A stretch of 54,859 nt of DNA from Moniliella sp. 'wahieum' (taxonomy: Eukaryota): positions 62,001 to 116,859 of the forward strand of contig RSEE01000150.1 of the NCBI GenBank assembly GCA_003971905.1, read 5' to 3'. The notes under the pieces are model-generated. The model saw only the letters and a program-made list of their open reading frames with translations, was not told the DNA's origin and made no database searches. Every line of letters begins with the position of its first letter. Position 1 is the stretch's first letter. This document shows positions 2,654 through 54,815 of this stretch, in pieces. The position numbers and the translations under genes are program-made.

Positions 2654-3472
2654 CGCGACGAGACGGACGGTGGTGGCGCAGACGACAGGTTCGGAGATAG
2701 GGCAAGCCAAGCGCTATGCCCGACGGGCATAGATAACCCCCGCTCGCACCATCTTCTGGGGGGTTGGGCGGTAGGCCCTAGGCCGCTACCGTGTCAGTCT
2801 GCCTGCTGAGCTGAATATTGAATCTGACACGCCAGCCCCACTTCTGACTCGACCGAGTCCAGAGCACACCCATCCGAACCGGTTCCTTAGGCCTTACGCG
2901 GGCCTTACGCCATTTACAGCCGGCCAGCCAGCCACAGAGGGCGGGTGAATATTGAATATTGAATCCTGGGGCCTGAATAGCAGCCAATGACGTCACCGCT
3001 CTATCTGCCGCACAATCGCCCCGCTCGCTTTTATTCCGCTACGGGATACCCAGCTCCCGCGCCCATGTCTGCTCCATGCGCACCACCACCAGCGGCTGGG
3101 GCCAGGGCAGCAGCCAGCCGACCGCCTGCCTGCCCCGAACGGGGGCGCTGTGTACCCAGTGCCGCCGCTCCCCATTCCGCACCGGGGCGCAAGGGCTGCG
3201 CGCTGCTTGGCGATTCAAGTGGCCGCTGGAGTGGAGTGGGTAGGAGGCGGGCCCAAACTTTCCTCGTCTGTACGTGTTCACTTCTCTCACATGTCTTCTC
3301 TTCTCAACGATGGCACAGCAGCTACTGTTCGAGGAGTGTTCAAGCGCTGCGTGTGCTCATACAGGTGACCAGCCCATCGTACGTCATGCATCATGCTCCA
3401 TGCTCCATCCACCATGCAGGCAACGGGGGAAATGGTCAGCGCCTCTTTTGCTTGCTGTGGTATAGTGCTGCT

Positions 3473-15585: not shown

Positions 15586-17908
15586 TGCGAGTGCCAAGGC
15601 GTTCGGTTGCAAGGTAGGTTAGGTTGGTGGGGACTCTTGCGGTCAGCGTCAAGCCTAGCGGCCAGCAATGCCGTGCTCAACGTTCAGCTTCAGCAGGTCT
15701 GGCGGGCAGCTGCTGGACCGAAGAGCACGGAAGAGACGGATGGTTATGGTGGGGTAGCCGGTAGAGGTGCTAGGGGCCGGCGGTGCTGGCCTGTCGAGGT
15801 GTGTGGGATGGCGTGTGGGGATCGGCACACGCAAGGAATGTGTGGAGCATATAAAATCGTTATAGGACAAAAGCACAGGATATTAAATTGCAGGGGTTTC
15901 TTCCTCTCTTTTCGACTAAAACGACTCTGGTCAGCCTACCTCGGCCTCCTTCGACTGCGTCTCGGCGGGGAGGGGCCTATCGCCTCGTCTGTCGTCTGCG
16001 TCATTTCATACTCGATGGCAAGCCCCCGCACAGACCCAATCTCTCCGGCCTCAGGCCAGAGGGACCTCGGGCCTCAGACGTGGGTTCGCAACCGTTGAAA
16101 AGGAGCGAATTCACATTCAATATTCAGCATCGAGTGCGCCCCAACCTGACGAAGGGTGGTTGTGTTGGGCACGGATGCAACCGATGGACGCCTGGAGCAT
16201 GCAAGATGGCCAAACGCGGTTACAGGCCGCGTGCGCTGCGCCTGAGGCCTGAGTGTACTGAGTGTTCTCGAAGGAGCTGCCGGTATCGAGTATCCTCGTT
16301 TCGCGCGGCGTCACGCGTCACGTTGACAAATTGTGGCCGTCATGCATCGCGGTGCATGATGCGTCATGCGTGAACGATGCCGCTCATCAATTTCAAATCT
16401 CATGATCCCATCGACTCGTACACTCACTACTCAGCTGGGTGCTCATAACTCAGTACTCAGTGTACGCATCAACGACATGTTCACCAAAAGCTCATGCACA
16501 CGACTAGGACTAGTGATGACACTCGTGACTAACGGCGCTGGCGAACCCGGGGTATGGAGCATGTCTGCGTAGATCGTAGACTGAGAGATTCACCGTTACG
16601 CGTAGACCAGAAGACAGGGCGGCAAGGAAGATATGACTGGAGAGCGAAGAGGATGAAGGTGGTGGTCACGAAGTAGGAGAGAGAGAAGGAGACAGGAAAG
16701 AGGAGGCCGCGCGCACGGAACTCGCTGCGCCCTACAGTGCCCAAAGGCTCCTGGGGCACATCACTGCGTCGGATCTCTACGTCACAACCACACTTGCCCA
16801 CTTGCCCACTTTCCCACTTTCCCACTTTCACGCCCCACGCTCCACCCCCAGCTCGACAGTTCCTCGCGTCCGCGGCCATCCTCGGCGGTGCTCAGGCAAT
16901 GGCCGGTGGGTTGGGGTTGCTTGCTTCCCTCGCACTCGTTGGTGTCAAACTTGTGGAGGTGTGCCAGAGCAGGAAGGAGTTAAACGTACGTTCAACCTGG
17001 ACGTTCCAATGTTCAACGTTCAACATTGTTAGCCAGTGGTGTAACATGTAAGTCCTGGGCCTGATGCATGATGCATGATGCATGATCGACAGCCTTGTCT
17101 GTGTGACCTGTGGCATGTGAGATGTGACGTGTGATACATGTGATACGTCAGCCTATTGCGCCGAATATCCGAACCTGGAGCCGAACGTCCGACTGGTTCT
17201 TTCGGCTCGACTCTGCCGACTACGCGCTACCGACTACCGCGATCGCTAGTCAAGCTAGTCACTAGTCACTTGCTTCAGCAGTAGGTGTAGCTAGCAGTCC
17301 GCAGCCGCCGGGGTGGCAGGCGGGGGTAGCGGGTATTAGCGCTAAGCTTGGGACTTGGCCGCCTTCAATATTCAAGTGTCTGATGTGCAACACCTATTGA
17401 GTCGAGTCCCCCCAACAGTCGACGGCGTACTGCTCGCAGCGTAGGGTCACTAGGTCACTAGTTTCTGGTGCTTCTCAACACGCCGCATTGCTTGCTTGCG
17501 GGCTGAAACTGGTCTAGAACAGATCTCAGAATCTCAGAATATCAGAATCTCAGAACTCGGAGGGATCGGCACAGGAGAGAAGCTTATTGAAGCTTGAAGC
17601 TTGAAGCTTAAAGAGGGATACTGATATTCGGCCTGGACGACCACTACTAATAGCATATATGACAATGCATAAGCGGTAACCGGTAACCTGTAACCAGGGT
17701 AACCGGTAACCGGGGTAAGCCACAACCTCCGCCCTCTCCACGGCCATGCAACCAAGCCGACAGAAGGTGCGGACGTTTTTCCCCACCGTCAGAGTTAAAC
17801 GTTAAACGTTAACTGCAGTATATATAGTGCAGGCGCAAAGGACCGACGGAGTGCATTGTATAGTAGCCTGCCATCATTAATCATTCTCACCACGACCTGG
17901 GTCAAGTT

Positions 17909-21410: not shown

Positions 21411-21878
21411 GATACTGGAGACGGGGGTTGCGGGACAGAGAGAAGTCCTTTTGGGAGGGATACTGCGGTTCTTTGGAGCGGATCTGAAACGGGGGATGGA
21501 AAAGGACGTATGGGCGTTCTGGGATGCGGTAATGAGTGTCGGTGGGAGGGACTGGAGATGGCATGCTTCGATCCAACGTAGGTATGTCAGCTCGACCCCG
21601 CACACGGCGGATGCAGCCTTTCGTCGACTTGGCCTCGAACGAGACCTAAGGCCCTAAACCCTAAACACGCCCCGCGTGCCATCGATTGCCCAGGCCGACT
21701 GGGAGTCAACCGTAAGCAGCACATCGTTGTGAAAGCATCCAGCTCCCCGCTGGCAATGGGACTGAAGGACTTTGTACACCAATTAATTCTCCCGAAGCGT
21801 GCTCCAAGCATCTGTTCGATTTCTCAATTGGAGTGTGGGGCCGGCTACTTGGTCCCCGAGGTTGCTGTCGGGCATCGA

Positions 21879-21974: not shown

Positions 21975-22851
21975 TGCTACAAAAACCCCACTTGGAAGCT
22001 ATACCGACGTCCTGAGGCAACAGCTACTGTCACATGTCACATGTCACGCGTCACGGGCGAACTCGGGTTAGGCGGAGTTTACGCGCACCTTTCGCCTTCC
22101 TAACTCCGTCCCAGGTTTTGGTCAGTGGGTCAGATTCGATCTGATCGATGATCCATGATCCATTTTAGCTGACGCTGAGGGCCATGCGCTCTACCCAATA
22201 ATACAGCGCGCCCTCAGGCCTCAAGATTCAATATTCAATTCAGTTCCAACGCGGTTTAAGTCTACGTATCCGCGCGAGAACAGTCGCCTCCCACCCAGTG
22301 AATTGACAACCCCAGTTTCCTGGTTCTCCGCGTTTCCATTGTCCTTGCGATGCTATAGTAGCCCTGTGCCCGTTGATCCGACCTCTGACTCTCTGCGTTG
22401 CGCTTTTTGTGGCAACCGCAACAGTCGTCGCCCCATGCCTGTTTACCTTATACCTTTCTACTACGCTGTCCGTGCGGCAGTCTTGCCTGTGTCTTCCCTG
22501 TTTTCGCCTGTTCTCCGTTCTTCCTCTTCTGCCTTGTTCCCTTTTAATCCCTGTCTGTCAGCAATGGTTCGTGGCTTTCCCCCCACGGTCCTTGGCGTCT
22601 CCCCTACTCTCCTCGCCAATTGATCAACCCGCTGCAGTACAGGCAGCCCTCCTGTTGTTGGTTGCTCCTCCAGCCCCCGTCATCAGCTCGCAGCTCCCCC
22701 AGCCAAGTCCAGCCCCGTTTAGCGGCGTGTGATCGCGCCTACAGCCACACCGTCCCCAGTCTCAGTCCAGCTCCAATCCGGCTGCGTAGGTCCTCTCCGC
22801 TGCCTCCTCCCTGTCCTCGAGCCCGGCGGCGCACGCCCGTGATAGCTACAG

Positions 22852-25033: not shown

Positions 25034-25167
25034 ACGTCAATCACGTTTCTGACGTTCAAGGGGGTGACGTCGGCGACATATCTGACGTTCAAGGGGATGA
25101 CATCGAGGACATAACTGACCTGCAAGGGGATGACATCGGGTGACATCGACGACGTCACTGACCTGCA
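25034..25167. repeat. 33-bp period minisatellite, about 4 copies
   Basis: Units at 25034, 25067 and 25100 share CTGAC(GTT/CTG)CAAGGGG(G/A)TGAC; a partial fourth unit follows a 10-nt insert. Confidence 0.85.
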
Positions 25168-28100
25168 GCGCGCTGACAGAATTGCCTCTCCCAGGGCAAA
25201 TTACTCTGACATTTTCAAGGCATTTTATATCATAAACATAAATGATGTCTTTTCGTGATCCGCTGTATACTGCTATGGGTGTTGGCCAACGTATCTGGGC
25301 TCGGTCGGGCTGCACAAGGCTCATCGAGGCGTCCATGCTCTGCTGCTGCTCAGAATGTCTCGTGAGGGCACTACAGCGGGATTCGAGCTTAGTTAGATAC
25401 AGTGTTCCCAAGCACAAGCTGATGGAGGGCTTGCTTGGATTCAATCCCACACTTTGGACAGCATGCCATGGATTGCGTCCCGTTGTGCATAGTTATACTG
25501 CTGTTGTTGGCTGTGCTCCAATCTCAAACCCAATCCCTGCGCTATGGGAAAGAATTCCATTGATTGTGTCCCCTCGTCGGACAATGCTGCTGTTGCTGGC
25601 TTAGAGAAGAGGGTGAAGCACGCCGCATATGGTACGAACGAGCTAGTGTGCACAGGAAGGAAATTGTTGGTAGCCCATGTAGGACGCGTTCACGGCTGTT
25701 GGAAGAGATGGCACTGATGTTGCTCATGCAGGAAGGCGTTAGGAGCGCTTAGGCTCCGCAGGGCCCGCTCGGCCATCTTTGCCCGCGACACGTTCGGGGA
25801 CGAGTGCATCAATTTGTCCAACTCACGCATTCATCTCACCCGGTCGGATTTGATTGTGGCGGGTAACTATCCGGGTCTCTTGATCAACGACACCACGATG
25901 GAGAAAAAGCATGAAGTTTGCTATGCACCGCCGATCGGCGCTGACAACGGAAAATATATTTCGCCGTTGACGAGATAAAACGAAGAACGAGGCCGGAGAG
26001 AATCACACAGAACAGCCGCCAACGCACAGACACTTACAAAGCCTTGGGTTCACTTGGAGTCAAGTACGGATGGCGCCTTCGATGCTCATATGACGTGTCG
26101 AAAACACATACAGCGCCCGAAGATTCTACTAACAATACTTCTGGTCATTAACCCTGTGCTGCCTTGACATAAATTCTCAGAATTTCACGGCGCTAGCCTC
26201 GATCTGTATTCATGGGATTGATTACCGCGGTTGCATGGTGATCGGGGGGAACTGCGTTCAAAAGCAAAAGGCGACCTCAGCGTAGGAAAGTGGACATGTC
26301 TTAACGTCTGTGTCCAACTGCCGTCAATAGGAATTTGTTTAATTCACGGGCACCAAGTTATGCGAGTCAGCGTCATCTCCTCTCGAGGCGCTCGCAGATT
26401 GATCAGTGACTATATGGAATCTTATAGTCGTCTAGGCTCAGAGAATAACGAATGTACCCTCAAGACCAAATTCTGTTCACCCGGAGTCCTTACCCCCATG
26501 TCCATTAGCACACTGATATCGCTCGTGCCTGGGCACATTTGTATACTTGATAGTGTTTCGACATGCGCTTAAACCCAAGTAACGACACGAAAGAGCAAAA
26601 ACAGGCATTAAATGTGCAGCTTACGGAAAGTCACAATCATGATGTGAACTCAATTACCGTTTCGGAAACGTACAACCTCGCGCGCCAAAGCAAAGTGTAG
26701 AATATACATGCCCTTTACAAGCATGACCTGATTTGTATAAACTATGAAAATGGTTGGTCCGCGGTAACACGGTTTTTGCCTACGAACTGGAATAAATTAC
26801 GCCATGATACAAGAGCATGCATGCAATATCGTTGGGGTAATATTTTGGCCGCCAGATGAACCATTGCGACCGGCTCATATTTGGGAAATTCAGAGTGCAT
26901 TAGGCCTCCTCAGATATCAAAAAACCAAACGAACTCATGTATAAAAAAACAACTCATACCAAGATAATGGTTCACAAGAGTTGGATACAGTGCATGCCAT
27001 TGAAGAAGAGAGCGACCCTAAATTGAATGCTTCCGTGAACTGGCTGTGATTGGGCCGACCGATCCACCACCATTATCAAAAAAGATTTGGGAGTACACCC
27101 CGTATGGTGTCAAACCAGCATAGGGGACTATTCCGCAAATGAGTTCGATCCGCACATTGCCCAATTAGTCGATCGGATATGGCCTGCCGCATAAAGAGTT
27201 GGAGATCTTTCTGCATACCCCGCCTGTGCTGTGCATTACACACGCTCATCATTACCCTCACTTAACCGATAGTACATTATTTGGAGCAGAAGTTCAGCTC
27301 ACAGACTGCCCACTGCCCGCTCGCTCCTTCTAACACCTCGTCTCACCTGTCCACTTTGTGTCAGGTGTTCCTTGAAGACTTTTTGCTCACTTCTTTACCC
27401 TCACGCCTCGTTTGAAGGCAACGGTGTACCGATTACCCCTCAGTTCTCACGAGTCACACTCTTGCATGGTCAGCTGGTTACCCTAGCGTCCTTTTGTTCA
27501 CCTTCCATGTATGTGGTGAGTTAACTTCGTCTTTCTATGGACAATCTGTTGCTGGGAATGCATTCTCGGGGTTCCGTGGCATTTTGATGCTGTCCATAAA
27601 AATGGTCTGTGGCTTCTAAGATTCAAAACACAATTCATTTATTCATGTGAAAGACGGGGAGACGTGATCCAACCTCCATTTTCAATTATATAAGCTCTTA
27701 ATGGCAGTACTTCCTTATTTAGTGTAATGTATTAAAGAAAAATCGGTACCGGATCTGTTAATTTGGAGGCAGAATGTAGGGATAGCCTTCAAGCCCGTAA
27801 CCTTCTTTTATTCCTGGTATAACTGCGTACCCCTTGTTCGCGTGCAGAAATACAAAGAAAAGCTAATGGGAATTTTGTTGCCTAGCTTCGTGATGTGGAA
27901 TAAAAATGGAAATGTTGCCTAATGGAAACTCGAATGGCAAAAGGAGCGAGAGGCGAATCCAAACCATTATTGAGTCGGAAATATCAGTCCCGAGAAAAAG
28001 ACATACGTGCCACCCGCATTAGAAAAGATGCTAATTCGACCTTGATCGGCGGCGATGGAAAGCTCACAATGGCCAACACATGATATCAGATTCTATCTCT

Positions 28101-29953
28101 CATTTGACCTGGAGTCCGGGTGGTGTTCCAGAGAGATATCAACTCGTACTGAAGGTGGTGGCGATCTAAGCCACCTACCAACATCTACAGAGGAAGATCA
28201 TGTAGCTAGCAGCCGCCAGCAGAGACTACGCGGAAAAATCAGTTTCAGGGAGACAGAAAACACTGAACTCCTAGGCCTCATAGAGGGACTGAAGGGACAG
28301 TCACCCAACCAGGCAAGCGCCCCCCCAAGACTGAACCTCTCACCCACACCAAAGGAATAAAACAATTGTTTTGCCAGAGACGGTTTAAGAAGCACTGAGA
28401 AACCGGGAAGAAAGGGGAGCCAAATCAGACCAACTGGGTTGGTGAAGTATTAAGAGAGATGATCCACGCTCGGGGACGTGATGAACGGCAAGTTCACCGG
28501 GATGGGTGCGTTCTCGCACCTGGTGGTCCCACCCACACATCAATCGGGCAGATTTTACCCAATCAGACTGGGCTTTTCAGCAACAGTCATGGTTACAGTG
28601 TTGTTCACTTAGAGCTCGGGGTGGTGTGGGCAGAATATGTGCAGTTCAAAACAAATGGTGCGAACAAACGTGCATTGCGCAGGCCATATACCCACGGCCA
28701 TAAGTATTCAGAAATCGGTGTATTGCTCACTTTTTGTTGACCAATGGCCATTCGTGGCGAAGGTCACTTCGCTCACTGCTGACGAGGTTGAGCCCATCAC
28801 ATCGCCCATACTGGCATCCGAGGTGGAACCGAAGGAAGCCATTGGATTTCATCTCGAGAGGTCTATGCCGGCCAAGCTTGACAAGGACCGAATGGTAGAT
28901 ATCCTGCGAACGGCAAGCAACAAGAAAATCCGAGACGGCCTGAGGGCGGGAGCTGTTGGCAGCAACAGTGAGGAACGGCATCGCCTTTTCCATATCGGCT
29001 CGCGGAACAGAGCGTCAACAACAATTGAATATCGAAGCTTTTCTCTCCTTCTCCAACAGGATCAAACAGGTACGCCGGAAGACATCTAGTACCCGGGCTC
29101 ACCTTGTATGCGTGCGTGAAATACGCCTGTGGTGCGCTCTAGATTTTCGACAAGCCACACTGTTCACTAGGATCTTGTGCGTATGACCGGCAGGCACTCA
29201 GAGGATGGTAAGGAAGTATAGTACTAGGTCAAGTATAAAGGACAAACGATGACGGTCGCTATTGAGGCTGGAGAGAGAGACATCAGAAGATGAGAGAAGT
29301 TCATTCGCGCGTCGGGGCTGCCGGCCGTGCCGCGAGGAGCACCGTGGATGCAGTAAGAGGGTTTTGTATTTCAATGGTTTGCCACAACATCTCATTTCAC
29401 AAAAGTCCTATTGATTCTCGAGGGATAAGGTTTCGCTATGGTCACTGATGACAATTTTCCACTTCCCCTATTGGGTCCACAAAGGATAGAGGGCATGGAA
29501 ACAACCGAACGTACGACGCCCGCAGCGTGTGCAACCATACGGTGTGATGGTTGCTGCGAAATGGCGATCCGCCTAGGTTTCTCTTCATAGGTTCTGGCCA
29601 GAAAAGGGGGATCGAAAAGGGCAGAGCATCAGGGTGGCTGTGCCACGTTTAATGGGAGGTGAAAGAGACCCCTCCTGCCAACCCGTCCGTCGTTCTTTGA
29701 GCCCATGACTTGTAGTACATGTGATCCTGTCCAACCTGCCCACCGGCCGCATTGGTGTTCTACCAGTAGGATGGTCCATGACCTATAGCACAAGTTAGGA
29801 GGGCAAACAATCAGGCGAGAGGAAGCTTCATTCAGACTCAGCGCGTTCCCCGATACAAGCAAGTTCCTAGTTCCTAGGTCCTGGCTCAACGTTGTGGGTT
29901 GCCAGCTTCCAGTCTGCTCGTTGCTGTGGGTTGGAGTGCAGTGCATTCTCATT

Positions 29954-32288
29954 CTATTGCACCTTGGGGAGAGAGGATGTAGGGTACCTTACTCTACACT
30001 TGCCTCGTCCGTGTCGCGCGGGGCGAGACGAGCTGTATTTCCCTCGGGCAGGCGGCGGTCCAGGCTGGGGCGGAGCGAGCGAGGTGGGTGAGGTGGGCGA
30101 GGACATCAGGGTGAGTGGGGGGTTGCGGGGAAGGCGCCAGCGCGTTGGCAGCGACCAAGGTGCTGCTGCTGCTGGTGGCGGTGGTGCTGGTGGTGGTGTG
30201 TTGGTGTTGGTGGTGGTGGTGTTGGTGGTGTTGGTGGTGTTGGTGGTGGTAGATGGTGCCCCCCCCTCTGGATGGCCAGTAGATGTGCGTGTTTGGTAGA
30301 CAAAGGGGGTTGCCGTTTTGGCGCGTCCGACCAGGGCCCAGTTCTTGGTGGACGGAATCCGCAGCGGTTCCTTTTCCACCCACCAGCCCGCTTGGAGTTG
30401 GAGCCAGGCGACGTACGCGAGGTAAGCCGCGTTGCGCGTGCGCGCGCGAGCGGGCGCACGTACGTCCCCAACCCCATTCCCATTGCCACCTCCATTCCCA
30501 TTCTCATTGCCATTCGCATTCGGGTGCGAGTGTGTTGTTTGCTCGCCCGCTGGCGGCGGCCTTGGTGGGCTTGTGCGCGTCGCCGGTTCTTCGCTCGGGG
30601 GACCGAGCAGGACGGCGGCGCGTGTGGCGTCGACGTGAGCTTGGTCCGGGGCAGCGCCTGCACGGACAAGAGCCTGACGCACCTGGTCCAAGGATACGTC
30701 GAATGTGTGCTGCGGGCAAACGGGTTCCGTCCAGGTCCCAGGGGCAGCAGGGGATTTGAGGAATCCCACGTGGGATCCTGGTGCTGCAGCGGCCAAGAGC
30801 GGCACCCAGGGTGTGAGTTCGTCAGCATGGTTGCCGATGAGGAAGCAGTCGGGGTTAAGCCAGTGCGCCAAGGCGGTTGGGTCGGCGACGAGGGCAGGAG
30901 GGTCGAGGGGAAGTACACGTAAGTCCCTTTGGTTGGGAGGGAGGGAGGAACGGGTTTCGTACTGTGCCCAGGAGTGGCGAGCACGTACGTCGATGCCGAA
31001 TCCTTCAAAGCCTTCCGAGCGGAGGAGATGGACCAAGAGACCGTTGCCACAGCCTAGATCGACAAACCCACCGCGCGGTCGGCCGTGCTGGTCCGGGTAA
31101 GTGCGAGCCCACAGCTCGAGGAGGTACGCGGCAATGGCCAAGTCTTCGTACACGTGTTTTTCGGGTCGGTCACCTCTTTCCACGAGGCGAGCAAGCGGGG
31201 CGCATGGGCCTGCTTGAGCGCCACGTAGCGGTCTTGGAACGCGGCTTGAGGCACGAGCACATCATGGTGAACGCGTTTGACGTACGCGCGCGCAATGCCC
31301 AGGGTGTGTTTGTGCTGCAAGTCGAGCAGCGCCTTGGCGGTGCGCATCAAGCGAGAGGAAGGCTCGGCGGCCAGCCGCACCCACGGACCTCGTCCTGTGT
31401 CCGGGGCGAGGCGCGCGAGGCGGAAGGGGGGAAGAGGAGCGCGTCGAGTCGGAGCGTGCCGGTCGACAGTGTTCCATCTGCCAATGCGGTGCCTGTGCCC
31501 GGTGGGTGCGGGAGGAAGCGGAAAGCGAGTGCGCGTACTTTGGGGTGGTACCATGGCACCTCTTCTTCCCTCGGCGAGGGCGACAAGAGCGGGAGGTAGA
31601 CCACCAGACCTTCTTGCCCTGCGGGCGTGGAGCGGTGGTAAAAGGAGCAGAGCTGGTCCATCGGCCGGTCCAACGCTGGGTTGCGCGGCAGCAGCCGCCG
31701 GTACACCGTCTCGCGCAACGTGTATTCTTCCAGCATGGGCGGCCCCGAGGGGGGATCGACGTCCTCGTGCTCCTGTGCGGCCGAATGCGAGTCGGAGTGC
31801 GAATCGGAGGCGAGTCCGAGTCCGAGTCCGAGTCGGAATGGGAGGAGACGGAGGTCGTGGGCGGTGAGGACATGGGCCAGGCGGGGGCGGAAGGGCGCGG
31901 GCGGGTGTGGCGAGCGAGGATGTCGGCGCGGAGGATGTAGTAGGAGTTGCGTTCGGGGTGGTGACTAGCGTGTGATCAGCGTCGTCCGCGTCGAGGGGGA
32001 AGTGAGCGTCGCACTGGGCGAGGGCAGACCAAGTGGACCAAGTGGAAGGTGGAGGCGGTGGGGTTGTCGCCATGGGTGGGGCTTGGGCGTGGTGGGGCGT
32101 GTGGAAGCGCATGGCGGGCAGGCGGGCCATCTGGTGGGGCGGAGCGGCGGGGTGGCGAGGTGGGGCCAGGCGCCGCGCGCGATGAGGATGGGTTCGGTGG
32201 CGGCGGGGAGAAAGTGGACGTGGGCGCCGACTTCGGCCTTGGCTTTGCGGCTGGAGCGCACATCCTTCCTCCCGGGCGGCGCAGCCAT
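29954..32288 (-). CDS. TRM44: tRNA(Ser) (uridine44-2'-O)-methyltransferase; frameshifted; 3' end approximate
   Basis: YVKRVHHDVLVP, WKEVTDP(E)KHVYEDLAIAAYLLELW, GGFVDLGCGNGLLVHLL, GIDVRARHSW, FLIGNHADELTPWVP and EPLRIPSTKNWALVGR. Candidate ATG at 32288. Confidence 0.93.
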
Positions 32289-34940: not shown

Positions 34941-36860
34941 AGTGACAAAGGGGTAAGCGGGGGTGTACATCGCTCCATGTACGTTGGCACCACACTCGTG
35001 TCGCAAGTCCATCCCATCCCATCCCAGCCTGATCTGATCCGATCGCCAAGTACGCTTGTCGTTCCCGGTGGCGTGGGCACAAGGTGCGTGCGAGACGAGC
35101 ACGCGGTACGTTTGGATCGAGGGTGAGGCGTGGGAGCGACCATCCAGCGGGCAGAGAGACGCAGCAAGGCGGAGTGGGTGCGGAGGACGAGGTGGATGAG
35201 GTGGGTAACGTGGACGAGGTGATGGATGAGGTGAAGCAAACCCGGCTGCTTTGGCTTGGTCCTCGACGGGGGTGGATTGGAGGTGGGGGGGGGCGGAAGG
35301 TATTCCGGCAGAGTACGCAGTCGCGGGTGACAGACAGGACGCAGTGGTCGGGGCACGTGACGTGCGGAATCCCCGCGTCCCGCTTCGCGTACCGAGTGGC
35401 AGCTCTGACTTCTGACTTCTGACTGACCAACTGATGCTTTTAACCTGATCCTATTAGCTTAATGCTGACGCTTGATTGGCGGTCGCCACGAGGTCGGCGA
35501 GCATGACAGCGACGGGCTTCGCAACGCGCCACGCATCCCCCCCGTTGTTCGCTCTGTTGGTGCCAGGCGTGCGCGTGGGCATGCGGTGGGAATGGATAGG
35601 GCGCCCCACTGAGGTGGCGAGCACGCGCGCACAGCAGCATCCAGCCCAAGGGACGAGGACGAGCGAGCGCACACGCCGGTTGCCCTGCACGAACAGGGTC
35701 ATGGTGGTGGCCTGCCGCAAACTGACCCCAACGGTGGTCGCCACAGCTGCCTCGGTGCCCGAGTGGGGGGGGTGCAAACCAGCCCCAACCCGGCCCAAAC
35801 CAGTCCCCAAACCCAAGTGGACTATTACGCAGACTTGCAACGCTTTAGGCACGTTGCGCAGCAAGGCCACCCTCCTCTGTCACGTGTCCCACTTACGACC
35901 CACGCGGCCAAGCGCAAGTCCGAGCGGCGCGTAGGACCGCAGCTGGACTACCTCCCCGTGTGGCTGTGGCTGGTACCGCTACTCTACTGGTTTGTGCGAG
36001 TAAGGTCGTATTGGTTTGCTGGCTTTGGTCCCCGGCCGCGTGCAGCGCCCGACACGCGTCCTGCACGCCGAGGCGGTGGAAACGCCCCCCTCCCCCGTTG
36101 GAGTTCGATACTGAGCACGACAACTTGAACCCCAGTGGAGGAGGCGAAGAGGCCTGCTAGGGCGGGCCAGCCGGCGCTCTAGCCAGCTGAGTCGGGCTCG
36201 GCCGAACGAATGGGACCGAGAGTGGTGGAGAGGTGTGTCGAGGCAGCGGCCAGTGGCGCTGTTGCGTCTCTCGTCTCTCGTCTCTTGTATCTTGTCTCTC
36301 CAATCTCACACTCTCACCACCAAGTGCCTGCGTACTCTGTTGCTCACGCTGGGCGGTGCCCGCCTCTACGCACTAACCCCAGGACGCGGAGCGTGGGACG
36401 TGGACCCCTGAAGGGACCAGTGCCCCAGAACGAATGAATGGGCAGACGAGTCTGACGAGGTGGATAGTGGCGATGGTGGCGATGGTGGTTATGGTGGTGG
36501 TTATTTTGGTGGTGGAGGGCCGTGCGTGTTGATTCGGAACAAACACGTAGCAGGGTTCCGCGCCGCGTGGTGGGGGGACACTAGCGCTGTGCGGGCACAT
36601 GCCAACGATGGTGGGACACTGCCTCTGTGCGGGCCGTGGACCACTGGCCTGTGCCGGCCCACTGCCCCCGTGCCCCAGGGCGCGTGGCTCGGTGGATGAC
36701 ATGTCACCGGTGGGAGTTGGGAGGACAACCAGCCACGGCCGGCGTCTTTTCAGCGGGCAGGTAGGTCGTAGTACCTCCTCCTCTTGCTCTTGCTCTTGCT
36801 CTTCCTCCTCCTCCTCCTCCTCTTCCTGCCCCCACCGGCACCCCCACCACCCCCACCACC

Positions 36861-38175
<1,315 letters not shown>

Positions 38176-39673
38176 GCTGGCTCCACTGTGGGTGGGTAGG
38201 ACCGCGGTGGACCTCGCGTCGTCGTGGCGCTGTGTGATGGGGGGGGAGTGGGAAACGCGCCGCGAGGGGCGCAACCCCGAGGCGAGCGGGAGGACAAAGG
38301 GGGGGGAAAGGAAGTAAGATGGGGACGGAACGGGAGGCGACTGGTCCCAGTTTCCCTCCCTTCGATCTCCATCGTGCGTGTTTGTTCGTTTTCGTTTTCT
38401 TCGTGCTGGGCGATCGCGCGTGGGCAGGCACGGTCCGAGCGCCTGTTGACGCCGGTGACGTGGTGGCCACAGCCTCCATCCAAAGCCAAAGGCAAGGGAG
38501 AAGTGTTTAAGTGGTTAAGTGTTGGTCTGTCGAAGAAACCTTCTCGTCTTGCCTTTTGTCCTCGATGCTCTCGTTTCGCCCTTACTTTGCCCCACGTTAC
38601 TCCCCTACGAAGTGGCGTACGAACTTCTTAGCTCTTACCTCTCTCATTCCTGCGTGCTCGCTCCGCCCCCCCAGCCCCTTCGCTGTGTCTTTCTGTCGCT
38701 GGCTCTCAACCTCTACCTCTTCCTTTTTCCCTCTACCTTTTTCCCTCTGCCTCTTACCTTTGCCTCTCTGTCTCTCGATCTCTGTGTCTCCCTCCTACCG
38801 CTCTCGATCTGCTCCCCCTCTCTCTCTCTCTCTCTCTCCGTTCGCATGCATCAGTCCCGCCCCACCTGCTCTCCTTGCCGCCCGAACCGCTTGGGTCCAT
38901 GCTCGTCCTCTCTCTCTCGATGCCTCTCTCTCTGTCTTTTTTCCCCCCATCCCCTTCCCATCCCTCGCCGTAGTATGTGACATTGGTCCGTGCATACACC
39001 AGCGTGGCCGAGGCGGGGGGGGGGTTGAAGCTTGAAGTTTTGAAGCTTGATGCGTGTCGTTCAGTACTACGTGTCGGTCAGTGCGTGTCGCTGCGTTGCG
39101 CTCTCGAATGTAGCATTCCGTTCACCCTGCCTGTTTGTGTCTGTCTGTCTGGCTGTGGACCTGGCTGGCGGGTTGGGTTGCGTTCGGATCGATTCGATTC
39201 GGTCGGCGCAGCGGGTGTGGGTTGTAGCGTGAGACTCGGAGTGCTCAGTGTGCAGGACAACAGAATGATCCGTACGCCATATGCCGGACGCCGAACGCCG
39301 TGCTCAGTACTCAGTCTGAGTGAGTGTGTAGAGCTCAGTACTCAGGGACTACTACTACTACAGATTTTGAGTGTACACAGCAGCGTTCTTGTATGCCTCG
39401 CGCGCGCGCGCGCGGTTCGTTTTCCCCAGTTATCCCAGCGTGACCGTCCTCCCCTCTCGTTCTGCTCTCCCGCCGTGGTAGGCAACCAGGGTAACCAGGA
39501 CCCAGGGGCGAGGACCAGTGGGTAAGAGATATCCGCGTACTATGTGCCACGCCCTCCCTCGAATCTACGTGCAGTTGTTCGTGGGATCTTCACCTTGCTT
39601 CCCTCACCGCTGAGAGTCCCGCGCCGGAGAGAGGTGTACATGAAGACCCATTGCACGTTCTTTTGCCATGACC

Positions 39674-39751
39674 AGAGCTAGAGCTAGAGCTAGAGCTACT
39701 AACTGAGCTAGAGCTAGAGCTAGAGCTAGAGCTAGAGCTAGAGCTAGAGCT
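39674..39751. repeat. (AGAGCT)n hexamer microsatellite, about 12 copies with one interruption
   Basis: agagctagagctagagctagagct-actaact-gagctagagct... Confidence 0.9.
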
Positions 39752-42700
39752 GGCGATGAGGATGAGGATGCCGTGGACGTAGATGGGAGGAGCAAGCCAG
39801 CTGCGCACGCTTGGATCGAGGAAAAGAAAAGAAAGAAAAGTAGAAAAAAGAGAGAAGGTGGACGAGGGGGGTGCGACCCAGCAACAAAAAGAAGAGACAG
39901 TGAGAGATGAATGAATGAATGGCTCTCATCAGAGGAAACGCTCCTTCCTCCAATCGGAGGGCAGGTCCGCGAGGTTCCGGGGGGAGCACTACGTTCGTCA
40001 GAGCATTTTCGTCAGATGGGATCTCCTCGTCTCTTCGACTCTGTCCTTAGTTAGGTAGTTTGACCCGCTGACTTGGAGCCACTGTTAGGGGACTACGCGG
40101 AGGGCGACGAGGGTAGAGTTGGTCGTTGCCAAGCCTAATAGCCAGTAGGCAGCCGGTGTAAATCCAAACGACGGGTCGGGACGAATGTCGTGTACGACTT
40201 GAGCAAATACAAAACTAGGTGTGGCATCCACTGTTTGGGCCATATTATTAGTACAGCCGCCGCGACAACAGCCAACGTTCATGATCATGATCATGACCAA
40301 GGTGCGGCGCAAAGCCAATGCTGCAATTGGGAGAGACGTGCTCCCGGCGTCGCGGCATTAATATGTGCTCCTGTTGGAGCACGCGGGCGGGCGGACGGCC
40401 TGCCCTGCACACCATCGACTTTCTCACTCCGTCATGGAAACGTGGAAAGGGAAGGGGCGGAAGGACAGTGTGCCTCGATTCGCCTCGTCCTCGCAAAGCC
40501 TACGCTCACTTCAATGTGTAGCGATGACGAGGTGCAGGTCCTGGACCGCTCACGAGCCCCACTGCATGTGGCTCACCAATATAAACGGATTCCCAACCGG
40601 CCACACTGCTCTGCTCTTTTTGCATCACCCACCCGGTACCCCAGCTGACGGGGTAGAAGGTGGTTGTGATCGCTTCACGCGCTCCGTCAGCTCATCGACG
40701 TACGAGAAGAGCAGGTCGAGCACGTTACGGGGGTACTACGCAACCACCTAGTGGGCTGGGCCTGTCAGCGCCCACTGATAAGTCCGCCAAGCGCCATCCG
40801 CCGAGCCTCACCAGCTCCCTCAGAATGCAGTGGATAAATGTTTGCCTCACTTCCCCGAGCGGTTGCCCATTACATCCTTGCACCCGCCGTGGCGCACGTA
40901 ACCAGGCATGCGAATCGCCCAAGCCCCCACACCCATAGGGCAGGACAGAGCCACAGCTGCGCGCGCGTACTGCGTGGATCTGCATCTGCATCTGCATCTG
41001 CATCTTCCTTTGCAGGTAGTGTACCCAGTGCCAGGGCACGCAGGAGGTTGTGGATACCACAACAAGGGTACAATGACGCCACCGGCTTAACGATACCCAC
41101 AACTTGGCGGATCCAAACCGTGCAGTGTGCCGTGGGTAACGTGTTGGACCCACACTGCTCCGGCCCCGTGAGGCCGGGGACGTCTGCGACGGGGCATGGG
41201 GAACAGGAAACAGGGAACAGGCAGGATGATCGGGTGGGATTTTGAACAACACGTGTTCCAGCCTGTGCGGGTGCGAACTAGTCAACTCTTTTCCCCGGGG
41301 TAGCGTGTAGTGAGTACGTACCAAGTACGGAGTGGTTGGTGGTCGTAGTCGGAGCCGCAACAAAAGTGGGGCGACAGAAGACACTGTTGGCTGTTCTGTT
41401 CTGTTCGCGTGTCTGGCACGGCGCATCACCGTCGGCGAGAAACGGCGATACAACAAGAGAGACTTGGGTGGCCGCCGCTGCGGTTCCCCCTGGGCACCAG
41501 TAAAGAATGGCCCTGCGACTCGGTACCTCTCGCTGCGGTGGTCTTTTGGTTTGGGCTTGCTTCTTCTTGCCACCACGGTTGCCCTTGTCGATCTCGCGTT
41601 GTCCTTTTGTCGCATGTCAACATGTCAACGTTCCGTACTTCAACTGCAACCGCTCGTGGGTTCACCTTCAAGCTTCAAGCTTCAAGGTTCAGAAGAGTCA
41701 AACTACAAGTCACTATAGAAAATCCTCACTGTAAGGATTGGGAATATCGATTTTGTCCGCGTCTCCATGCATATGGTGCGCCGGTGGACTCTCCGATACG
41801 AAGAGTCTCATACTTGTGTGCACCTTGTGGGGACCGATCCGGCTTACAATATACAACCCCCTACAGCCCTCCTACTCCACCACTGAGGCCTGAGGTACCG
41901 AGAACTGAGGACTGAGGGAGGTGTGCAACTCCCCTATATCAGCGCTAAGTACTAAACGCTAAGCACTAACGCGCGAACCGGCCGGATCTGAGGCGTCAGT
42001 CCGATGTCTGAGATCGGGCTAAAGGCTGGAGCCCTGAGTCCCTGAGACACTTGTTCCGCATCAAATATTTAGTGCAAGCTTGACGAGATTGACGAGATTG
42101 ACGAGATGGACGCCTCCTGCTTCTGGCGCTCAGCCCCAGGTCTCAGAGGGGGGGGGCAAGACCAGTGGGCGCGTCTTAGGCTTAGGCCTTATACCCGCCC
42201 TCAGGCCTCGCGCTTCACGCGCTACCGTGCTCCCGTCTCAGTCCCCAGTAGTGAAGCTTGAAGCTTGTAGCTTGTAGCATACGATGGGATCGAGTCATCT
42301 GTGCATCGAGATATCAACGTTCAACCGCTTCTAGTGTGGCGGCAGTGGATTGGCGCGGTGGGCAGCGACCATGTGCACTAGACAGAGCTGGGGTATAGAG
42401 CTGGTGTGTCTATATCCTGTCCACATATCCTGACCATCAATGACCATGCTGTCCAAGAAATACGCATGGGTGGGATGGACAGAGGACAGAGCGCAGACGC
42501 CCGCGGGGGTTGGACTCAATGCAAAACAACTGGTTTGTCGCGTGGGATTCCATGGTGCATGGTGCATGGTGCATGGTGTATGTTATGTTCGGCCTTATAT
42601 AGGCCTGAGGGCTTGCTGCGGCCAATATTAATACCGCGGAATCGGAATCCCGTTGTACGCTATTCATATGGCTGTGGATGTAGCTGGAAAGTAAATGTAG

Positions 42701-44823
42701 ATGTAGATGTAAATGTAGATGCCTCGATCCGCGGCACTTTTGGGTTCGGAGGATCAGAGCCCCTCGGAGCGTGTCGTACCTGATGCAATGGTTACTGGAT
42801 GGTGTGGACGGTGGTGTTGCACCGCAGTGGCTGTTGGGAGTGGCACTGCCGTATACTAGCTTGGTTCAACGTTTACATTTTTTTTGTACGCCGCACGTGT
42901 AGTAAACACTGCTGGAGGGCATTCCTCTGTTCTTCCTTATCACCACCACATCTTCGCTCAACGTCTCAACGTTCAACCCTCGGTACCTCTCGTTCTTGAG
43001 CTTCAAGATTGACCGTCGACAGGAGTCCGAAGGTCAATCGTCGATGGTCGATGGCTGCAACCTTCTTGGTTCGCATATGCAACCTGCCCAGCGAACCGAA
43101 CCGAACCGAACCGAACTGAGCCGAATGGAATCGAGTCGATGCAGCAGGGGATGCCAAGAGAGGAATGATTAATGAGTACTCGGACTGAGTAGTACTGAGT
43201 ACTGAGTAATGCAGATGGTGCGAGGGATGCAAATGAAGGGTACGCTTGGCATGTACCTGTGCCCCCCACTCGCCACTCTCGATCCTCCGGGAGAGAGGAA
43301 CAGAGTGGACCGATGGGGCCCTGAGCTATCACGCGTCACGCGTCACCAACTCGTCGGATTCCAATCGCTCCCGTTATTGTAGTCACGAATAGCCAAGCCT
43401 TAGATCTCCGAAGCTCGGCCTCCCGCCTCCCGCCTACCGTGTGCGTGGGCGTGCAATATGGCCTGGAATATGGAACGGTTAATGGCGCTTGAAACCGACG
43501 TGTGGCTGCCCTGTGTGATCTGTCTGTAACCTTCTGGCCACGCAACAACACACAGCTGGCCGTAGATCTCTGGTCTTTCATCGATAATCTTCCAGCAGCC
43601 TACTGTACAGCGGCGGCACCCAACCCACCTCCCTGATGCAGGCGATATGCCATACCTAGCCCCGGTCCCTGGCCAGGCCCGACTGGGCTCGTAGTAGCTA
43701 GCGGGAAAAACGCACTGCCAGGTCTTAAGCCTTAGATACGCCCCTCACGCGCGCCTCACCACGTGAGGGCCAAGACCAAGGCCAAACGTTACTCGTTAAT
43801 CGCACCCCCGCTCGTGCGGGCAGGTTGACCGGTGACCCGGGCTGGGGTGCGGACACTCTCCGTGTGCCGGGGCCCACCAATGGTATCGCAAAGGTTATCG
43901 ATTATCGAGTCATCGAGGTATCTCGCCGACTCGGGAATCGCCAGTAGCACAGCGCGCAAGTATGATACCCTAAGTAGGACCTGTACCTAGCGTAACTGAT
44001 TCACCTACCTAACCCAACCCCACCTTCAAGTTCAAGCTTCACGTGCTTCACATCCGCCAAGGCACACCAGGGCACAGGCACGCCTCTTTCGCATGCAACA
44101 TGTACCACGGCAACTCACTGAAACGCGCTCCCAGCATGCACCACGAGTCCCTGGTCATTGCAGTGCTCACGCGCTCACGCACGCAGGCCATGCGGGACCG
44201 GCGATACCCGCCTGCTGGGGAGCGGGCACAGGGTAACCAGTTAAGCCGTAGGCCTTAGATCGTAGAGGCTGGATTGGCAGGGGCAACAGTAGACCATGGG
44301 CAGGCCATGGCAGGCCATGGGCAGAGGTTCCGAGTGTCCACGCGGTACGGGACGCCTAACTTGGCTTGACACGTCACGCGTCGAGCTTCAAGTCAAGGTT
44401 GCGGTTGCGGTTGCGGTTGCGGTTTTGAGGTTGAGGTTGTTCCGGCTTCGCGACACTTTTGCCGTTGGCTGGTTACATGTTACCGGTGTTAGCGGGTAGG
44501 GTAGTCACCGAGTAGGCTGGTTAGGCAGGTCGCCTGTGTTGCTTGACTCGAAGCCTGACTAGTGTGACTCCTACCGCGTGCCACCAGTAGCGAGTGCCTA
44601 ACGAGGTACTGGACCAGCTCTTACCTCTTACCTCTTGCCTCTTGCCTCGTACCTCTGACGGGACGCTTGGCGTGAACCTGGGGAAGCAGGCGCCCACAGT
44701 GTGCGTGTGCGGTGGCCAGACCCAGTGGCAAGTCGCAAGTGGTAAGCGGCAAGTACATCCGTCGCGCGGATGCCAAGCTTCTGCCAAGCCAACTGCCACG
44801 CCAACGGGCGGCCAACCACGTGG

Positions 44824-44882
44824 TGACCAGTGAGCGGTGAGCGGTGACCAGTGACCAGTGACCAGTGACCAGTGACCAGTGA
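44824..44882. repeat. 7-bp period array (TGACCAG/TGAGCGG)n
   Basis: TGA at 44824, 44831, 44838, 44845, 44852, 44859, 44866, 44873 and 44880. Confidence 0.9.
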
Positions 44883-45498
44883 CTATGAGCAGAGCGGTAT
44901 AGTGCGGCGCACCCACCTGCTGCGGTTGCAATTCCCCACTATCCACCATCCCAAACTCTAGTATTCCATCTGGGGTAATTAAATTACCGTTTAAACCATC
45001 CGAGTGAGTTTCCAGTTGGGCTGGGCAACTGCACAATCGCACCTACAATCGCCAATCGCCAATCGCCAATCGCCTAATCGCCTAATCGCCCGTCTGGGCT
45101 GGGTCTAGGCCTGTGTGGGCAGTCTGGCTGTGCCGCTGCTGTGCGCCGATAACCCGACGCGTGGCGCGTGGCAGAAGGCGGGCGAGACTGGTGCCACACC
45201 GTACGGAAAAAAAGGGATCCATATCATTCAAGCCTGCATAAGCATTAAGCATTGCCACTCCACTGACCACTGAATCCCACACTGGCGTTTGAGATCCGGC
45301 GAGGCGAACTTAGTACTTACCACTTACCCCTGTTGTGCCACCGGAGTATATTTACCCCTGCCCTGCCCTTTTCCTGTTCTCTTCTTACTTTCTTCCTCTG
45401 TATCCGAACCTCCTTCCCGCTTTCTCTCTCTTCCCCTTTGCCTTCGCCTTTTTCCCTTTGGCTTTCGCTTTTTCTGCGTTTCCTCTACTCTTCCCACC

Positions 45499-50564: not shown

Positions 50565-50957
50565 AGAGTGGATGGGGGTGCAATTGATACTAGCTGCATG
50601 GTACTCGAGGCATGTTCGATGTAGGCCAAAAACCCCAATGCAATAGCAATCGATAGACGACAGTGGTTAGGCCTTAGGTAACCCCCCCCCCGGGGGCACG
50701 TGCGTAGGCCGCGTTGAACGTTCAATGTCCAATCCCCTCCGATTGCAATTTGAAACGAGCAGCGCACGAGCACAGCGCCCCCGTGCAGCACGCGTGCCGC
50801 CAGCCCCCTTGCAGGCGGCCTGGATGCTGGCCGGGCGAGGCACGCCCCCACCACCGCTCCCGCCACCGCCACTGCCATCGCCACCGCCATCGCCACCGCC
50901 ACCGCCACCCACCACCGCCATCGCCACCGCCACCCCACCACCGCCATCGCCACCGCC

Positions 50958-53900: not shown

Positions 53901-54815
53901 AGGTCGGATTGACCATCTTGTACGACCTCTTGCGCAACGTGGCGTCCAAAGCCGACCCGAACTTTGCCTCTGGGTTTTACCAAACTTACTTGCTCCCCAT
54001 TATGCAGGACATGTTCTCCGTCATGACCGATACGGAACACAAGAGCGGATTCAAGTTACAGTGCGCCGTGCTCGCTAAGATCTTTGAGTTGATCGAGAAG
54101 GATAAGGTCGATGTACCACTTTGGTCGGCGTCGGAAACCCTACCGCCCGAAGCGGGCGCTACGAACCAACTTTACATTCGCCAGTACACCGCTCAACTCT
54201 TGACTAATGCGTTTCCTAATGTTGAACCGTGCGTATCCACCTCAGGCTTTCCTCCTCCCCCCCCCCCTGTTTTTCTCTTGGCGTGGCTTGGCTTGACTTG
54301 GCTTGGTAGGAAGGAGTGGTATGCTGGATGCTTACCTTCCGCTATTGCTTTTGGTTTGTTTGTGTGCAGGGTGTACATTGAGCAGTTCGTCACGGGTCTG
54401 TGCCAGCAAGCCGGGGACATCAACAAGTACCGTACCTTGGTGCGAGACTTTCTCATCACGTCGCGCGAACAGTCGGGCAGTTTGTCGACAATGCCGACCT
54501 GCTGGAAGATGACAAGGAGGCTAAAGTCAAGGCCGAACAAGAGGAAGCAGCTAAGATCCCTGGAATGCTTAAACCGTATGTACTCTTCTCCTTTCTTTCC
54601 TTCTTTCCTTCTTTCCTTCCTCCCTTCTTTCCTCCCTCCCTTCTTCCTTCCGCCCCCCTTGCTCTTGCTCTTGCTCTTTCTCCCCGGTTCCACTCTCCCC
54701 TTTGGCACAGTGCCAAAACGTACAGGTTGATCTAACGTTTCTCCTTTGCGTTTTTTTGTTTGGTTTGTTTTGGCCTGTCAGCTCCCAAATGCAAGACGAA
54801 GACGAAGAGTTATGA
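50958..54815 (+). CDS. CRM1: Exportin-1 (nuclear export receptor)
   Basis: [109 protein letters not shown] and [17 protein letters not shown]. Introns 51220..51292, 51400..51477, 51827..51954, 54229..54369 and 54576..54781. Confidence 0.97.

Follow-up and report, generated by a model that had tools for sequence, protein, structure and literature searches.

Heptamer arrays centred on T-N-A in a 54.9-kb stretch of fungal DNA as candidate excision footprints of a cut-and-paste transposon

The locus

The 54.9-kb stretch of contig RSEE01000150.1 analysed here, which we call the window, is nuclear eukaryotic DNA whose genes are split by introns, and Pfam families match several of its stop-free frames. 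The window also carries short arrays in which the triplet T-N-A (TNA below) recurs every 7 nt, with a 4-nt spacer that is usually self-complementary. An initial annotation, made from the DNA letters alone, had singled out the interval 17013-17812 as the densest cluster of such arrays and had listed nine examples, all of which we find at the positions it gave; Tandem Repeats Finder returns eight period-7 rows between 17001 and 17812. We describe how these arrays are built and distributed, and we weigh the processes that may have produced them. The arrays and two of the genes are collected in Table 1.

Besides the genes in the table, Pfam identifies in the window a CHORD protein, a protein kinase, two MFS fragments, an AdoMet methyltransferase and a DUF3712 fragment. 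The best named relatives of the CRM1 fragment come from Tilletiaria, Malassezia, Thecaphora and Ustilago (43-46% identity over about 70% of the query). These matches place the host among the basidiomycetes, in the vicinity of the smut fungi (Ustilaginomycotina); the CRM1 search brought up no close named relative. GC content per kb ranges from 45 to 66% across the window. Since neither the length of an open reading frame (ORF) nor the GC content of its third codon positions discriminates in so GC-rich a window, only stop-free frames supported by Pfam are counted as coding in what follows (11.1 kb, 20% of the window). Across the whole window, Rfam searched at its gathering thresholds yields no family, and a tRNA scan yields no tRNA.

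Table 1. Coordinates of the TNA arrays, footprint-like products and principal genes in the window.
Feature	Coordinates	Details
Composite TTA x3	2885..2909	one-sided (GGCC, left-flank CC template) plus exact two-sided at 2892-2909
Two-sided footprint (candidate)	16979..16996	7-mer, 4-nt filler, 7-mer with one mismatch at N
TCA x2, spacer ACGT	17011..17024	14-nt exact period-7 run, both flanks +2 nt
Canonical 12-nt one-sided footprint (candidate), TAA x2, spacer CATG	17040..17051	left flank +2 nt, right 0
TGA x4, spacer TGCA	17062..17086	3.6 heptamer copies
Decayed TGA array, spacers near CATG	17102..17150	includes 7-mer/2-nt filler/7-mer at 17130-17145
TCA x2, spacer CTAG	17255..17270	16-nt run
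TTA-GCGC-TAA	17336..17345	middle base unequal between copies
TCA x2, spacer ATAT	17364..17375	12-nt run, +1 nt each side
Period-8 variant nnTCAnn	17445..17461	7-mer, one filler base that is the complement of its last, 7-mer
Period-8 array, TCA plus 5-nt odd palindrome	17523..17555	4.1 copies
TGA x3, spacer AGCT, then TAA unit	17587..17613	
Decaying TAA array, spacer CCGG and variants	17670..17718	one small insertion; exact sub-runs at 17674-17688 and 17698-17713
TAA x3, spacer ACGT	17794..17812	19 nt = 7x2+5; left flank +2, right 0
TCA x2, spacer TTAA	17873..17885	just beyond the 17013-17812 cluster
TCA x4	22028..22055	first two spacers CATG, last CGCG
Second dense cluster	41666..45319	18 of 54 loci; DNA without Pfam match
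TGA-CCAG heptamer array	44823..44883	unit one change off class; 5.7 exact copies at 44844-44883
OPT transporter	45636-48164	Pfam; first exon begins near 45636
Exportin-1/CRM1	50754-54727	Pfam, over many stop-free frames

Period, symmetry and spacer of the arrays

Unless stated otherwise, observed counts are compared with those in 200 dinucleotide-preserving shuffles of the whole window; the test for palindromic spacers used 100 such shuffles. Exact tandem duplications of period 7 are strongly over-represented, with 53 in the window against 2.84 +/- 1.56 in shuffles. Duplications of other periods are in excess as well, both at period 8 (11 against 0.84) and at period 6 (68 against 11.5). Among periods 4 to 8, an excess of dyad symmetry is seen at period 7 only: 20 of the 53 period-7 units are dyad-symmetric, where 10.9% would be expected, and every one of the 20 has T-N-A on its symmetry axis. 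No such excess of symmetric units appears at period 4 (93 of 239, 53.7% expected), period 5 (17 of 91, 28% expected), period 6 (12 of 68, 20.7% expected) or period 8 (1 of 11, 7.7% expected).

The same signal is seen when chains of T.A (a T and an A flanking any base) are counted directly. At period 7 there are 199 two-unit chains against 125.4 in shuffles, and 47 three-unit chains against 5.7. The two-unit excess is absent at periods 4-6 and 8-12, and the sole raised three-unit count at these other periods is that of period 6 (13 against 6.2). The spacers between the T.A units are palindromic in 74 of the 199 two-unit chains (37%), compared with 7.4 +/- 2.5 in shuffles. Among spacer lengths of 2 to 10, palindromes are enriched at 4 only; a further excess, at length 11 (10 against 0.21), is due to arrays of three TNA, in which two 4-nt spacers surround the middle triplet.

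The initial annotation had treated the period, the T.A frame and the symmetric spacer as properties that go together. The spacer does belong to the T.A frame alone, its palindromes lying at the background level of 3.2-7.1% in the remaining 15 X.Y frames. Period 7, on the other hand, is enriched in other frames too (three-unit T.T chains, for example, number 47 against 6.6), and we therefore regard the window as having a general excess of period 7 on which the palindromic spacer is superimposed as the one feature peculiar to T.A. The variety of spacers is slightly wider than the 13 of 16 palindromic tetramers first reported: GATC joins the list, for a total of 14, and only AATT and TATA are absent. 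In 63 of the 74 palindromic-spacer matches the two copies of TNA share their middle base N. The 800-bp cluster is indeed the densest in the window, holding 15 of the 74 matches and 9 of 53 loci.

Anatomy of the unit

By merging the matches with identical N into maximal exact period-7 runs we obtained 54 loci, 46 of them with two units and 8 with three or four. We write p and q for the two bases before TNA, r and s for the two after it, and a prime for the complement. The basic unit is then TNA-rs-s'r'-TNA-rs, that is, a 5-nt direct repeat whose 2-nt gap is the reverse complement of rs. Counted over both strands, this structure occurs 69 times, against 0.23 in shuffles. The TNArs repeat at a gap of 2, which has the form of a direct target duplication, occurs 113 times against 4.6; in the 69 units just counted the filler has the reverse-complement, P-nucleotide-like character of flank-hairpin footprints. 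Fillers of the same type but of 1, 3, 4 or 5 nt are absent or at background, with the exception of 1-nt right-hand fillers (8 against 0.93), most of which lie inside TCATGA/TGATCA repeats.

The lengths of the runs are equally regular. Among the 46 two-unit loci the mode is 12 nt (19 loci), followed by 13 nt (8), 14 nt (6) and 11 nt (5), and 34 of the 46 fall between 10 and 13 nt. The phase of the 12-nt runs is fixed: nine begin at the T and reach 2 nt beyond the second A (0,2), seven are the mirror image (2,0) and three extend by 1+1 nt, while offsets of 3 to 6 never occur. Since a tandem duplication needs at least 14 nt, plain slippage was not the step that seeded these loci, and a simple duplication of 7 bp is ruled out by the same modal run of 12 nt. 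Of the fold-back or slippage process that the initial annotation had offered as one of its two readings, the fold-back part is thus largely borne out, the halves of the spacer being a copy of the flank and its reverse complement, as P nucleotides derived from a hairpin would be; slippage does not survive as the seeding event.

The dependence of the spacer on its flank is the central observation. At 36 of the 46 two-unit loci the spacer continues for at least 2 nt into a flank, compared with a chance level of 12% and with 54 of 404 (13%) in shuffles (binomial P ~1e-24), and at only 2 of the 46 is there no continuation on either side. The left TNA is a component of the event, not something that the filler produced incidentally: among the 109 sites of the form palindrome-TNA-rs (background 21) an identical TNA stands on the left in 69. 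Usage of rs and of N follows the frequency of TNArs in the window, so that T and A alone are specified: the loci with a symmetric centre comprise 47 with TNA, 2 with A-N-T, 3 with G-N-C and 3 with C-N-G. The commonest spacer per locus is GGCC (8 against 3.3 expected).

Several routes to this product were considered and set aside. A fold-back copy of the whole of TNArs would give complementary N in the two copies, which conflicts with the 63 of 74 matches that share N; the pairs TGA/TCA and TTA/TAA occur twice each. A duplication of the 5 bp TNArs is disfavoured, as the two-sided forms described below also duplicate the 2 nt upstream of TNA, which supply P nucleotides. A filler drawn from the termini of an element (a 3-bp duplication plus 2 nt from each inverted repeat) is countered by the 36 of 46 loci with flank templating. 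Worked through by hand, a 3-nt staggered cut at TNA with fill-in, piggyBac-like hairpins with TNA in the loop, a flap or strand-displacement model with template switching, and a hAT-type hairpin with a 1-nt offset all fail to give the product.

Two-sided products

A smaller number of loci have a fuller form, in which sequence from both flanks is present. The arrangement TNA-palindrome-palindrome-TNA occurs three times against 0.45 expected, and two of the three agree with both of their flanks, in that the second palindrome is supplied by the 2 nt preceding the first TNA and the first palindrome by the 2 nt that follow the last TNA. Written out, these are pqTNArs, then s'r'q'p', then pqTNArs again, which is exact at 2892-2909 and has one mismatch, at N, at 16979-16996. 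Two-sided 7-mers with the predicted 4-nt filler occur four times in 100 shuffles altogether. At 17130 the 7-mer is repeated past a 2-nt filler that equals q'p', the right-hand P nucleotides. In addition, five TNA-centred 7-mers are repeated after a single base, and in all five that base is the first P nucleotide of one side. These one-base cases include the period-8 arrays at 17445 and 17523, within the cluster under study; the second of them may represent a 7-mer with a single filler base that was expanded afterwards. Judged by their structure, the fuller forms are the products expected of a duplicated 7-mer nnTNAnn with 0, 1 or 2 palindromic bases on each side.

Two of the arrays elsewhere in Table 1 combine more than one event. 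In the composite at 2885-2909 the one-sided and two-sided events have one TNA in common. In the array at 22028-22055 the final CGCG spacer has a first half identical to the CG lying directly after the last TCA, which is what a later event at the end of the array would produce. The hexamer TCATGA, a palindrome in which TCA and TGA alternate, is repeated three times at 40279-40296, the sole dyad-symmetric period-6 array with its axes between bases; it might be a 3-bp-type product at TNA, although the class TNATNA to which it belongs shows no enrichment.

Distribution, decay and expansion

The arrays avoid exons that have Pfam support. None of 53 loci overlaps a Pfam-supported frame, where 10.7 would be expected (P = 6e-6); the avoidance is what any frameshifting insertion would show. 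The loci concentrate at about 15.1-17.9 kb and at 41.6-45.3 kb, and the AT-richer region at 24-30 kb has none. The second cluster is bounded upstream by a 299-codon minus-strand stop-free frame without a Pfam match and downstream by the OPT transporter gene. Insertion into accessible promoter DNA, or local hopping, could have led to such clustering.

A TATA-like stretch, TATATATAG, lies at about 17820, some 10 bp past the end of the dense cluster, and downstream of it an ATG at 17929 opens a short plus-strand frame. The position of these signals suggests that the dense cluster sits in the promoter of a plus-strand gene.

Many units appear to be decayed members of the class. Units that differ from it by one change are in excess whether runs of 12 nt or longer are counted (43 against 10.3) or only those of 14 nt or longer (15 against 0.58). 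Some decayed units are themselves repeated, such as TGA-CCAG at 44844-44883 and the CACTAGG units beside a TCA-CTAG array at 328-353, and for this reason we consider that arrays grow by ordinary slippage once they have been seeded. Repeated events at the same TNA perhaps lengthen them as well. There is also a background of CT-rich heptamers outside the TNA class. The CT-rich tracts and CT-rich heptamer arrays at 38716-38838 and 44618-44656 are typical polypyrimidine sequence of promoters or introns, and arrays of this kind account for part of the general period-7 excess outside the class.

A possible excision mechanism

We lean, if only slightly, towards reading the heptamer arrays as footprints left by the excision of a cut-and-paste transposon with TNA as its target, expanded by slippage and decayed by mutation, rather than as functional sites. 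As the structure of the loci implies, each primary event would have added 7 bp at a T-N-A, converting pq-TNA-rs into pq-TNA-rs-s'r'-TNA-rs or its mirror image. A target duplicated to either side of a scar, together with a filler of inverted copies of the neighbouring flank, is the classical mark of cut-and-paste elements whose excision passes through flank hairpins. The excision of hAT, Transib, RAG and Mutator-like elements (MULEs) is described as proceeding through hairpins on the flanks, which Artemis-like host enzymes may open and non-homologous end joining (NHEJ) may rejoin, and as often leaving footprints (PMC5499845). According to PMC5873905, the footprints of Ac/Ds in S. cerevisiae and C. 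albicans contain P-nucleotide palindromes, with predominant types that are specific to each species, and yeast Pso2 is implicated in their formation.

On this model the transposon would insert with a 7-bp target-site duplication centred on TNA, and its excision would leave both flanks as perfect (blunt) hairpins. A host nuclease would open each hairpin 2 nt from its tip, to give a self-complementary 4-nt 3' overhang (rs-s'r') on a duplex that ends exactly at TNA. In most cases end joining would retain a single overhang and trim the other away, so that the site gains 7 bp, in one orientation or its mirror image (9 against 7 among the loci); in the rare cases in which both overhangs are retained, it would gain 11 bp. 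Replication slippage, together with further events at the same TNA, would then build short arrays that decay by point mutation. Clustering would follow from insertion into accessible DNA or from local hopping, combined with purifying selection against frameshifts in exons.

Two features of the data shape this model. Because the use of rs and N follows the availability of TNArs, no particular sequence need have been selected; and because the centre of the palindrome falls between bases, the hairpin would be blunt, of the Transib/RAG and Muta1 type, and not offset by 1 nt as in Ac.

Comparison with known transposons

The target consensus of hAT elements, nTnnnnAn, is not centred on TNA. The Ac/Ds system of this superfamily is alike in that it makes a two-sided target duplication, and in that its excision leaves short flank-templated palindromes that arise from off-centre hairpin opening and NHEJ (PMC5873905). 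Its duplication of 8 bp, the classical hAT length, is unlike that found here, whereas hAT7 elements duplicate 7 bp (PMC12730594). The hAT scheme with a 1-nt offset, when worked by hand, fails for the products at 2892 and 16979.

V(D)J recombination, like the related Transib and RAG systems, forms perfect hairpins on the flanking (coding) DNA, and its P nucleotides are about 2 nt long. Artemis opens hairpins 2 nt off the tip. A role for Artemis-like enzymes in hairpin opening is discussed in both PMC5499845 and PMC5873905. The duplications of Transib and RAG are described as 5 bp long, GC-rich and symmetric (PMC1131882), whereas the fuller forms here keep 7 bp, only T and A are specified, and flanks are used without a preference for GC. 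Muta1, a Mutator-like element, also makes a flank hairpin, and the linearised form of 86 nt (43 + 43) reported for it is compatible with a blunt hairpin; it differs in duplicating 8-9 bp and in that more than 90% of its excisions in yeast are precise (PMC5499845).

Duplications of 7 bp are on record in the Basidiomycota, for Kyakuja (KDZ) elements in Agaricomycotina and for hAT7 in the Pucciniales, or rusts (PMC12730594); the part of that paper available to us does not report them for Ustilaginomycotina. Kyakuja elements are marked by a KDZ transposase and 5'-CA..TG-3' termini, and the window contains no such element. A duplication of this length in a basidiomycete is what we observe, with 7-mers on both sides at 2892, at 16979, at 17130 and at the five loci with a gap of one base. 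PIF/Harbinger elements resemble the pattern in their target instead: mPing inserts at T-N-A with a free middle base, as here, yet it duplicates 3 bp and excises precisely by way of complementary 5' overhangs, with no flank-templated palindrome in the account given by PMC4561436. The TNA target is thus shared, and the 3-bp TNA/TWA duplication is not, the block here being 5-7 nt with a flank-templated filler. Galileo and other elements of the P superfamily, animal elements from Drosophila, are described as making target-site duplications of 7 bp. Their target consensus is palindromic and not centred on TNA, and to our knowledge P-element excision does not use flank hairpins.

Several observations weigh against the excision reading. 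The palindromes of hAT footprints have as their centre a single base, the complement of the one that adjoins the element (PMC5873905), whereas here the centre falls between bases, so that known hAT chemistry does not account for them. The product in which both overhangs have been clipped, TNATNA, is not enriched (33 against 33.9). The density of the loci is high, at about one per kb overall and nine in 800 bp. The scars are also denser and much more uniform than known footprints, for in rice 8 of 94 excisions were simple (PMC4423477) and in Candida 28 footprint types were found among 128 clones (PMC5873905). That the events were insertions, and not losses, is inferred from structure. Finally, inverted-repeat scans and scans for terminal inverted repeats (TIRs) with duplications revealed no source element in the 54.9-kb window, and Pfam found no transposase domain on any of its 424 stop-free frames of at least 70 codons.

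The individual scans of the window gave the following results. Inverted repeats included nothing convincing. TIR pairs flanked by a 3-bp duplication that contains TNA numbered 12 against 8.25, and those with such a 5-bp duplication 1, 3 and 0 against 0.40, 0.85 and 0.55, neither set beyond chance. With a 7-bp duplication there were 0 against 0.00 when 10 of 12 TIR positions had to match, and 4 against 3.8 when 8 of 12 had to match. One pair of 12-nt inverted repeats, at 26400 and 29451, is flanked by TGA and matches at 11 of 12 positions, but it has no extension and encloses only short ORFs; it may be an old element or a chance pairing. A megablast search of 26300-29550 against plasmids, which is ill-suited as a test for an element, returned no match.

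Alternative explanations

Other processes could account for some of these observations. Ordered by the weight we give them, they are a TNA-specific nuclease, snap-back synthesis by a repair polymerase, Harbinger-type elements, slippage alone, arrays of binding sites, and an artefact. The heaviest dispenses with an element, and supposes that an endogenous nuclease specific for TNA, for example a domesticated transposase, acts together with a fixed hairpin or snap-back repair that adds 7 bp. We consider this unlikely, though it is well suited to a window that lacks an element, to a very uniform outcome and to loci that are dense and clustered. Its difficulty is that a single break gives no reason for a duplication of 5-7 bp on both sides, whereas whole 7-mers on two sides are the outcome of integration followed by excision, and no one-step cut at TNA that we tried by hand reproduced the product. 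Inverted copies of a flank are likewise what a break-repair polymerase would make by snap-back synthesis (alternative end joining) at breaks that happen to favour TNA, with direct as well as inverted flank copies as the insertions, again without transposition and without any element to be seen. This we find improbable, in view of the strict need for T and A (47 TNA loci against 8 with other centres), a filler fixed at 2 nt and a duplication of 5-7 nt that would go unexplained. The palindrome might instead be built from two terminal bases of each inverted repeat of a PIF/Harbinger-type element, or of a miniature inverted-repeat transposable element (MITE), framed by a 3-bp duplication of TNA. 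The free N of the mPing target (PMC4561436), the identity of N in both copies and the match of the commonest spacer, GGCC, to the rice Harbinger terminus GG(G/C)CC (PMC4423477) all speak for such an origin. Yet we see little prospect for it when 36 of 46 loci are templated by their flank, only 2 of 46 lack any continuation, and the spacers draw on 14 of the 16 palindromes, roughly as often as the flanks make them available; moreover, mPing is described as excising precisely with 5' overhangs (PMC4561436), and the duplicated block is 5-7 nt, not 3.

If dyad-symmetric heptamers are prone to form hairpins, they might expand faster than others by slippage, and the arrays would be ordinary microsatellites; exact copies do reach 5.7, decayed units have been amplified, and the general excess of period 7 extends to units far from the class. 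As a full account this is very unlikely, because the mode is a 12-nt run in fixed phase where at least 14 nt are needed, because TNA centres 47 loci against 2 for A-N-T, 3 for G-N-C and 3 for C-N-G, and because no dyad excess accompanies periods 4, 5, 6 or 8. Slippage is therefore contradicted as the seeding step and stands as a secondary means of expansion. The other reading in the initial annotation, sites at which a dimeric or polymerising protein would read T and A once per 7 bp, with the arrays acting as an insulator, an origin or a nucleosome-excluding element, finds no support here, since a spacer of arbitrary sequence is templated by its own flank and the use of spacer and N tracks the availability of TNArs. 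Selected cis-elements of this kind would explain why the loci cluster in gene-free stretches, why a TATA-like sequence at about 17820 adjoins the dense cluster and why the pattern is self-complementary. We nevertheless rate them marginally below even slippage alone: the units decay rapidly, 46 of 54 loci have only two of them, and selection against frameshifts, or a preference in insertion, would produce the clustering just as well. An error of assembly or sequencing is hardly credible, as the pattern depends on the local flank, varies over 14 spacers and spares the 11.1 kb of evidence-supported exons.

Implications

The type of process we favour is known, P-nucleotide footprints of excision being its hallmark. 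What appears to be new is the combination of a 7-bp duplication centred on TNA, a blunt hairpin, an opening fixed at 2 nt from the tip, a very high density and the seeding of microsatellites. Full-text literature searches, whose coverage leaves out most subscription journals, found no description of TNA-centred palindromic heptamer scars. Nor did they, with the same coverage, find a paper on heptamer repeats in the intergenic DNA of smut fungi, such as the initial annotation had mentioned for Ustilago maydis.

A bolder claim, which we put forward only tentatively, is that the intergenic heptamers are the fossils of a single transposon family, or of a nuclease derived from a transposase, that makes a TNA-centred 7-bp duplication, leaves perfect flank hairpins and has them opened at 2 nt. 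If so, this family left scars at some 2% of all TNA sites and gave rise to most of the microsatellites close to promoters. Thousands of its past excisions could be read from a single genome, and the activity of the family, its choice of targets and the repair rules of its host could be reconstructed without seeing the element itself. If the excision reading as such is right, one genome yields the target length (7 bp), the motif (TNA), the chemistry (blunt hairpins) and the position of opening (2 nt) for an element that is absent from the window, and what looks like a regulatory code would be a clean and abundant mutational signature. It would also be a concrete case of microsatellites seeded by transposon scars, account for the dominance of one odd period among the intergenic repeats, and caution against taking dyad-symmetric periodic motifs in promoters for binding sites. 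More speculatively, the 6-bp palindromes and TGA/TCA half-sites that such scars place upstream of genes are possible raw material for regulatory change.

Minor features of the window

An AT-richer island at 26000-28400 has 45% GC, compared with 51-65% around it; it contains short stop-free frames only and no TNA scars. In a region without Pfam support, at 25048-25139, there is a 33-bp tandem repeat with 2.8 copies and 86% matches. Two trinucleotide runs are found in or at frames with Pfam matches: (TGG)26 at 30173-30250 lies inside the long ORF that bears the AdoMet methyltransferase match, and (CCT)18 at 36774-36827 overlaps the start (36772) of the first stop-free frame matching Pkinase (36772-37272), in which the domain match begins about 230 nt into the frame. 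Both runs probably encode low-complexity segments of protein.

At 21652-21666 the heptamer CCCTAAA, which resembles the plant-type telomere repeat, occurs twice in the interior of the window, probably by chance. The hexamer array (AGAGCT)13 at 39674-39751 (89% matches) contains the AGCT palindrome, with a period of 6 and no TNA.

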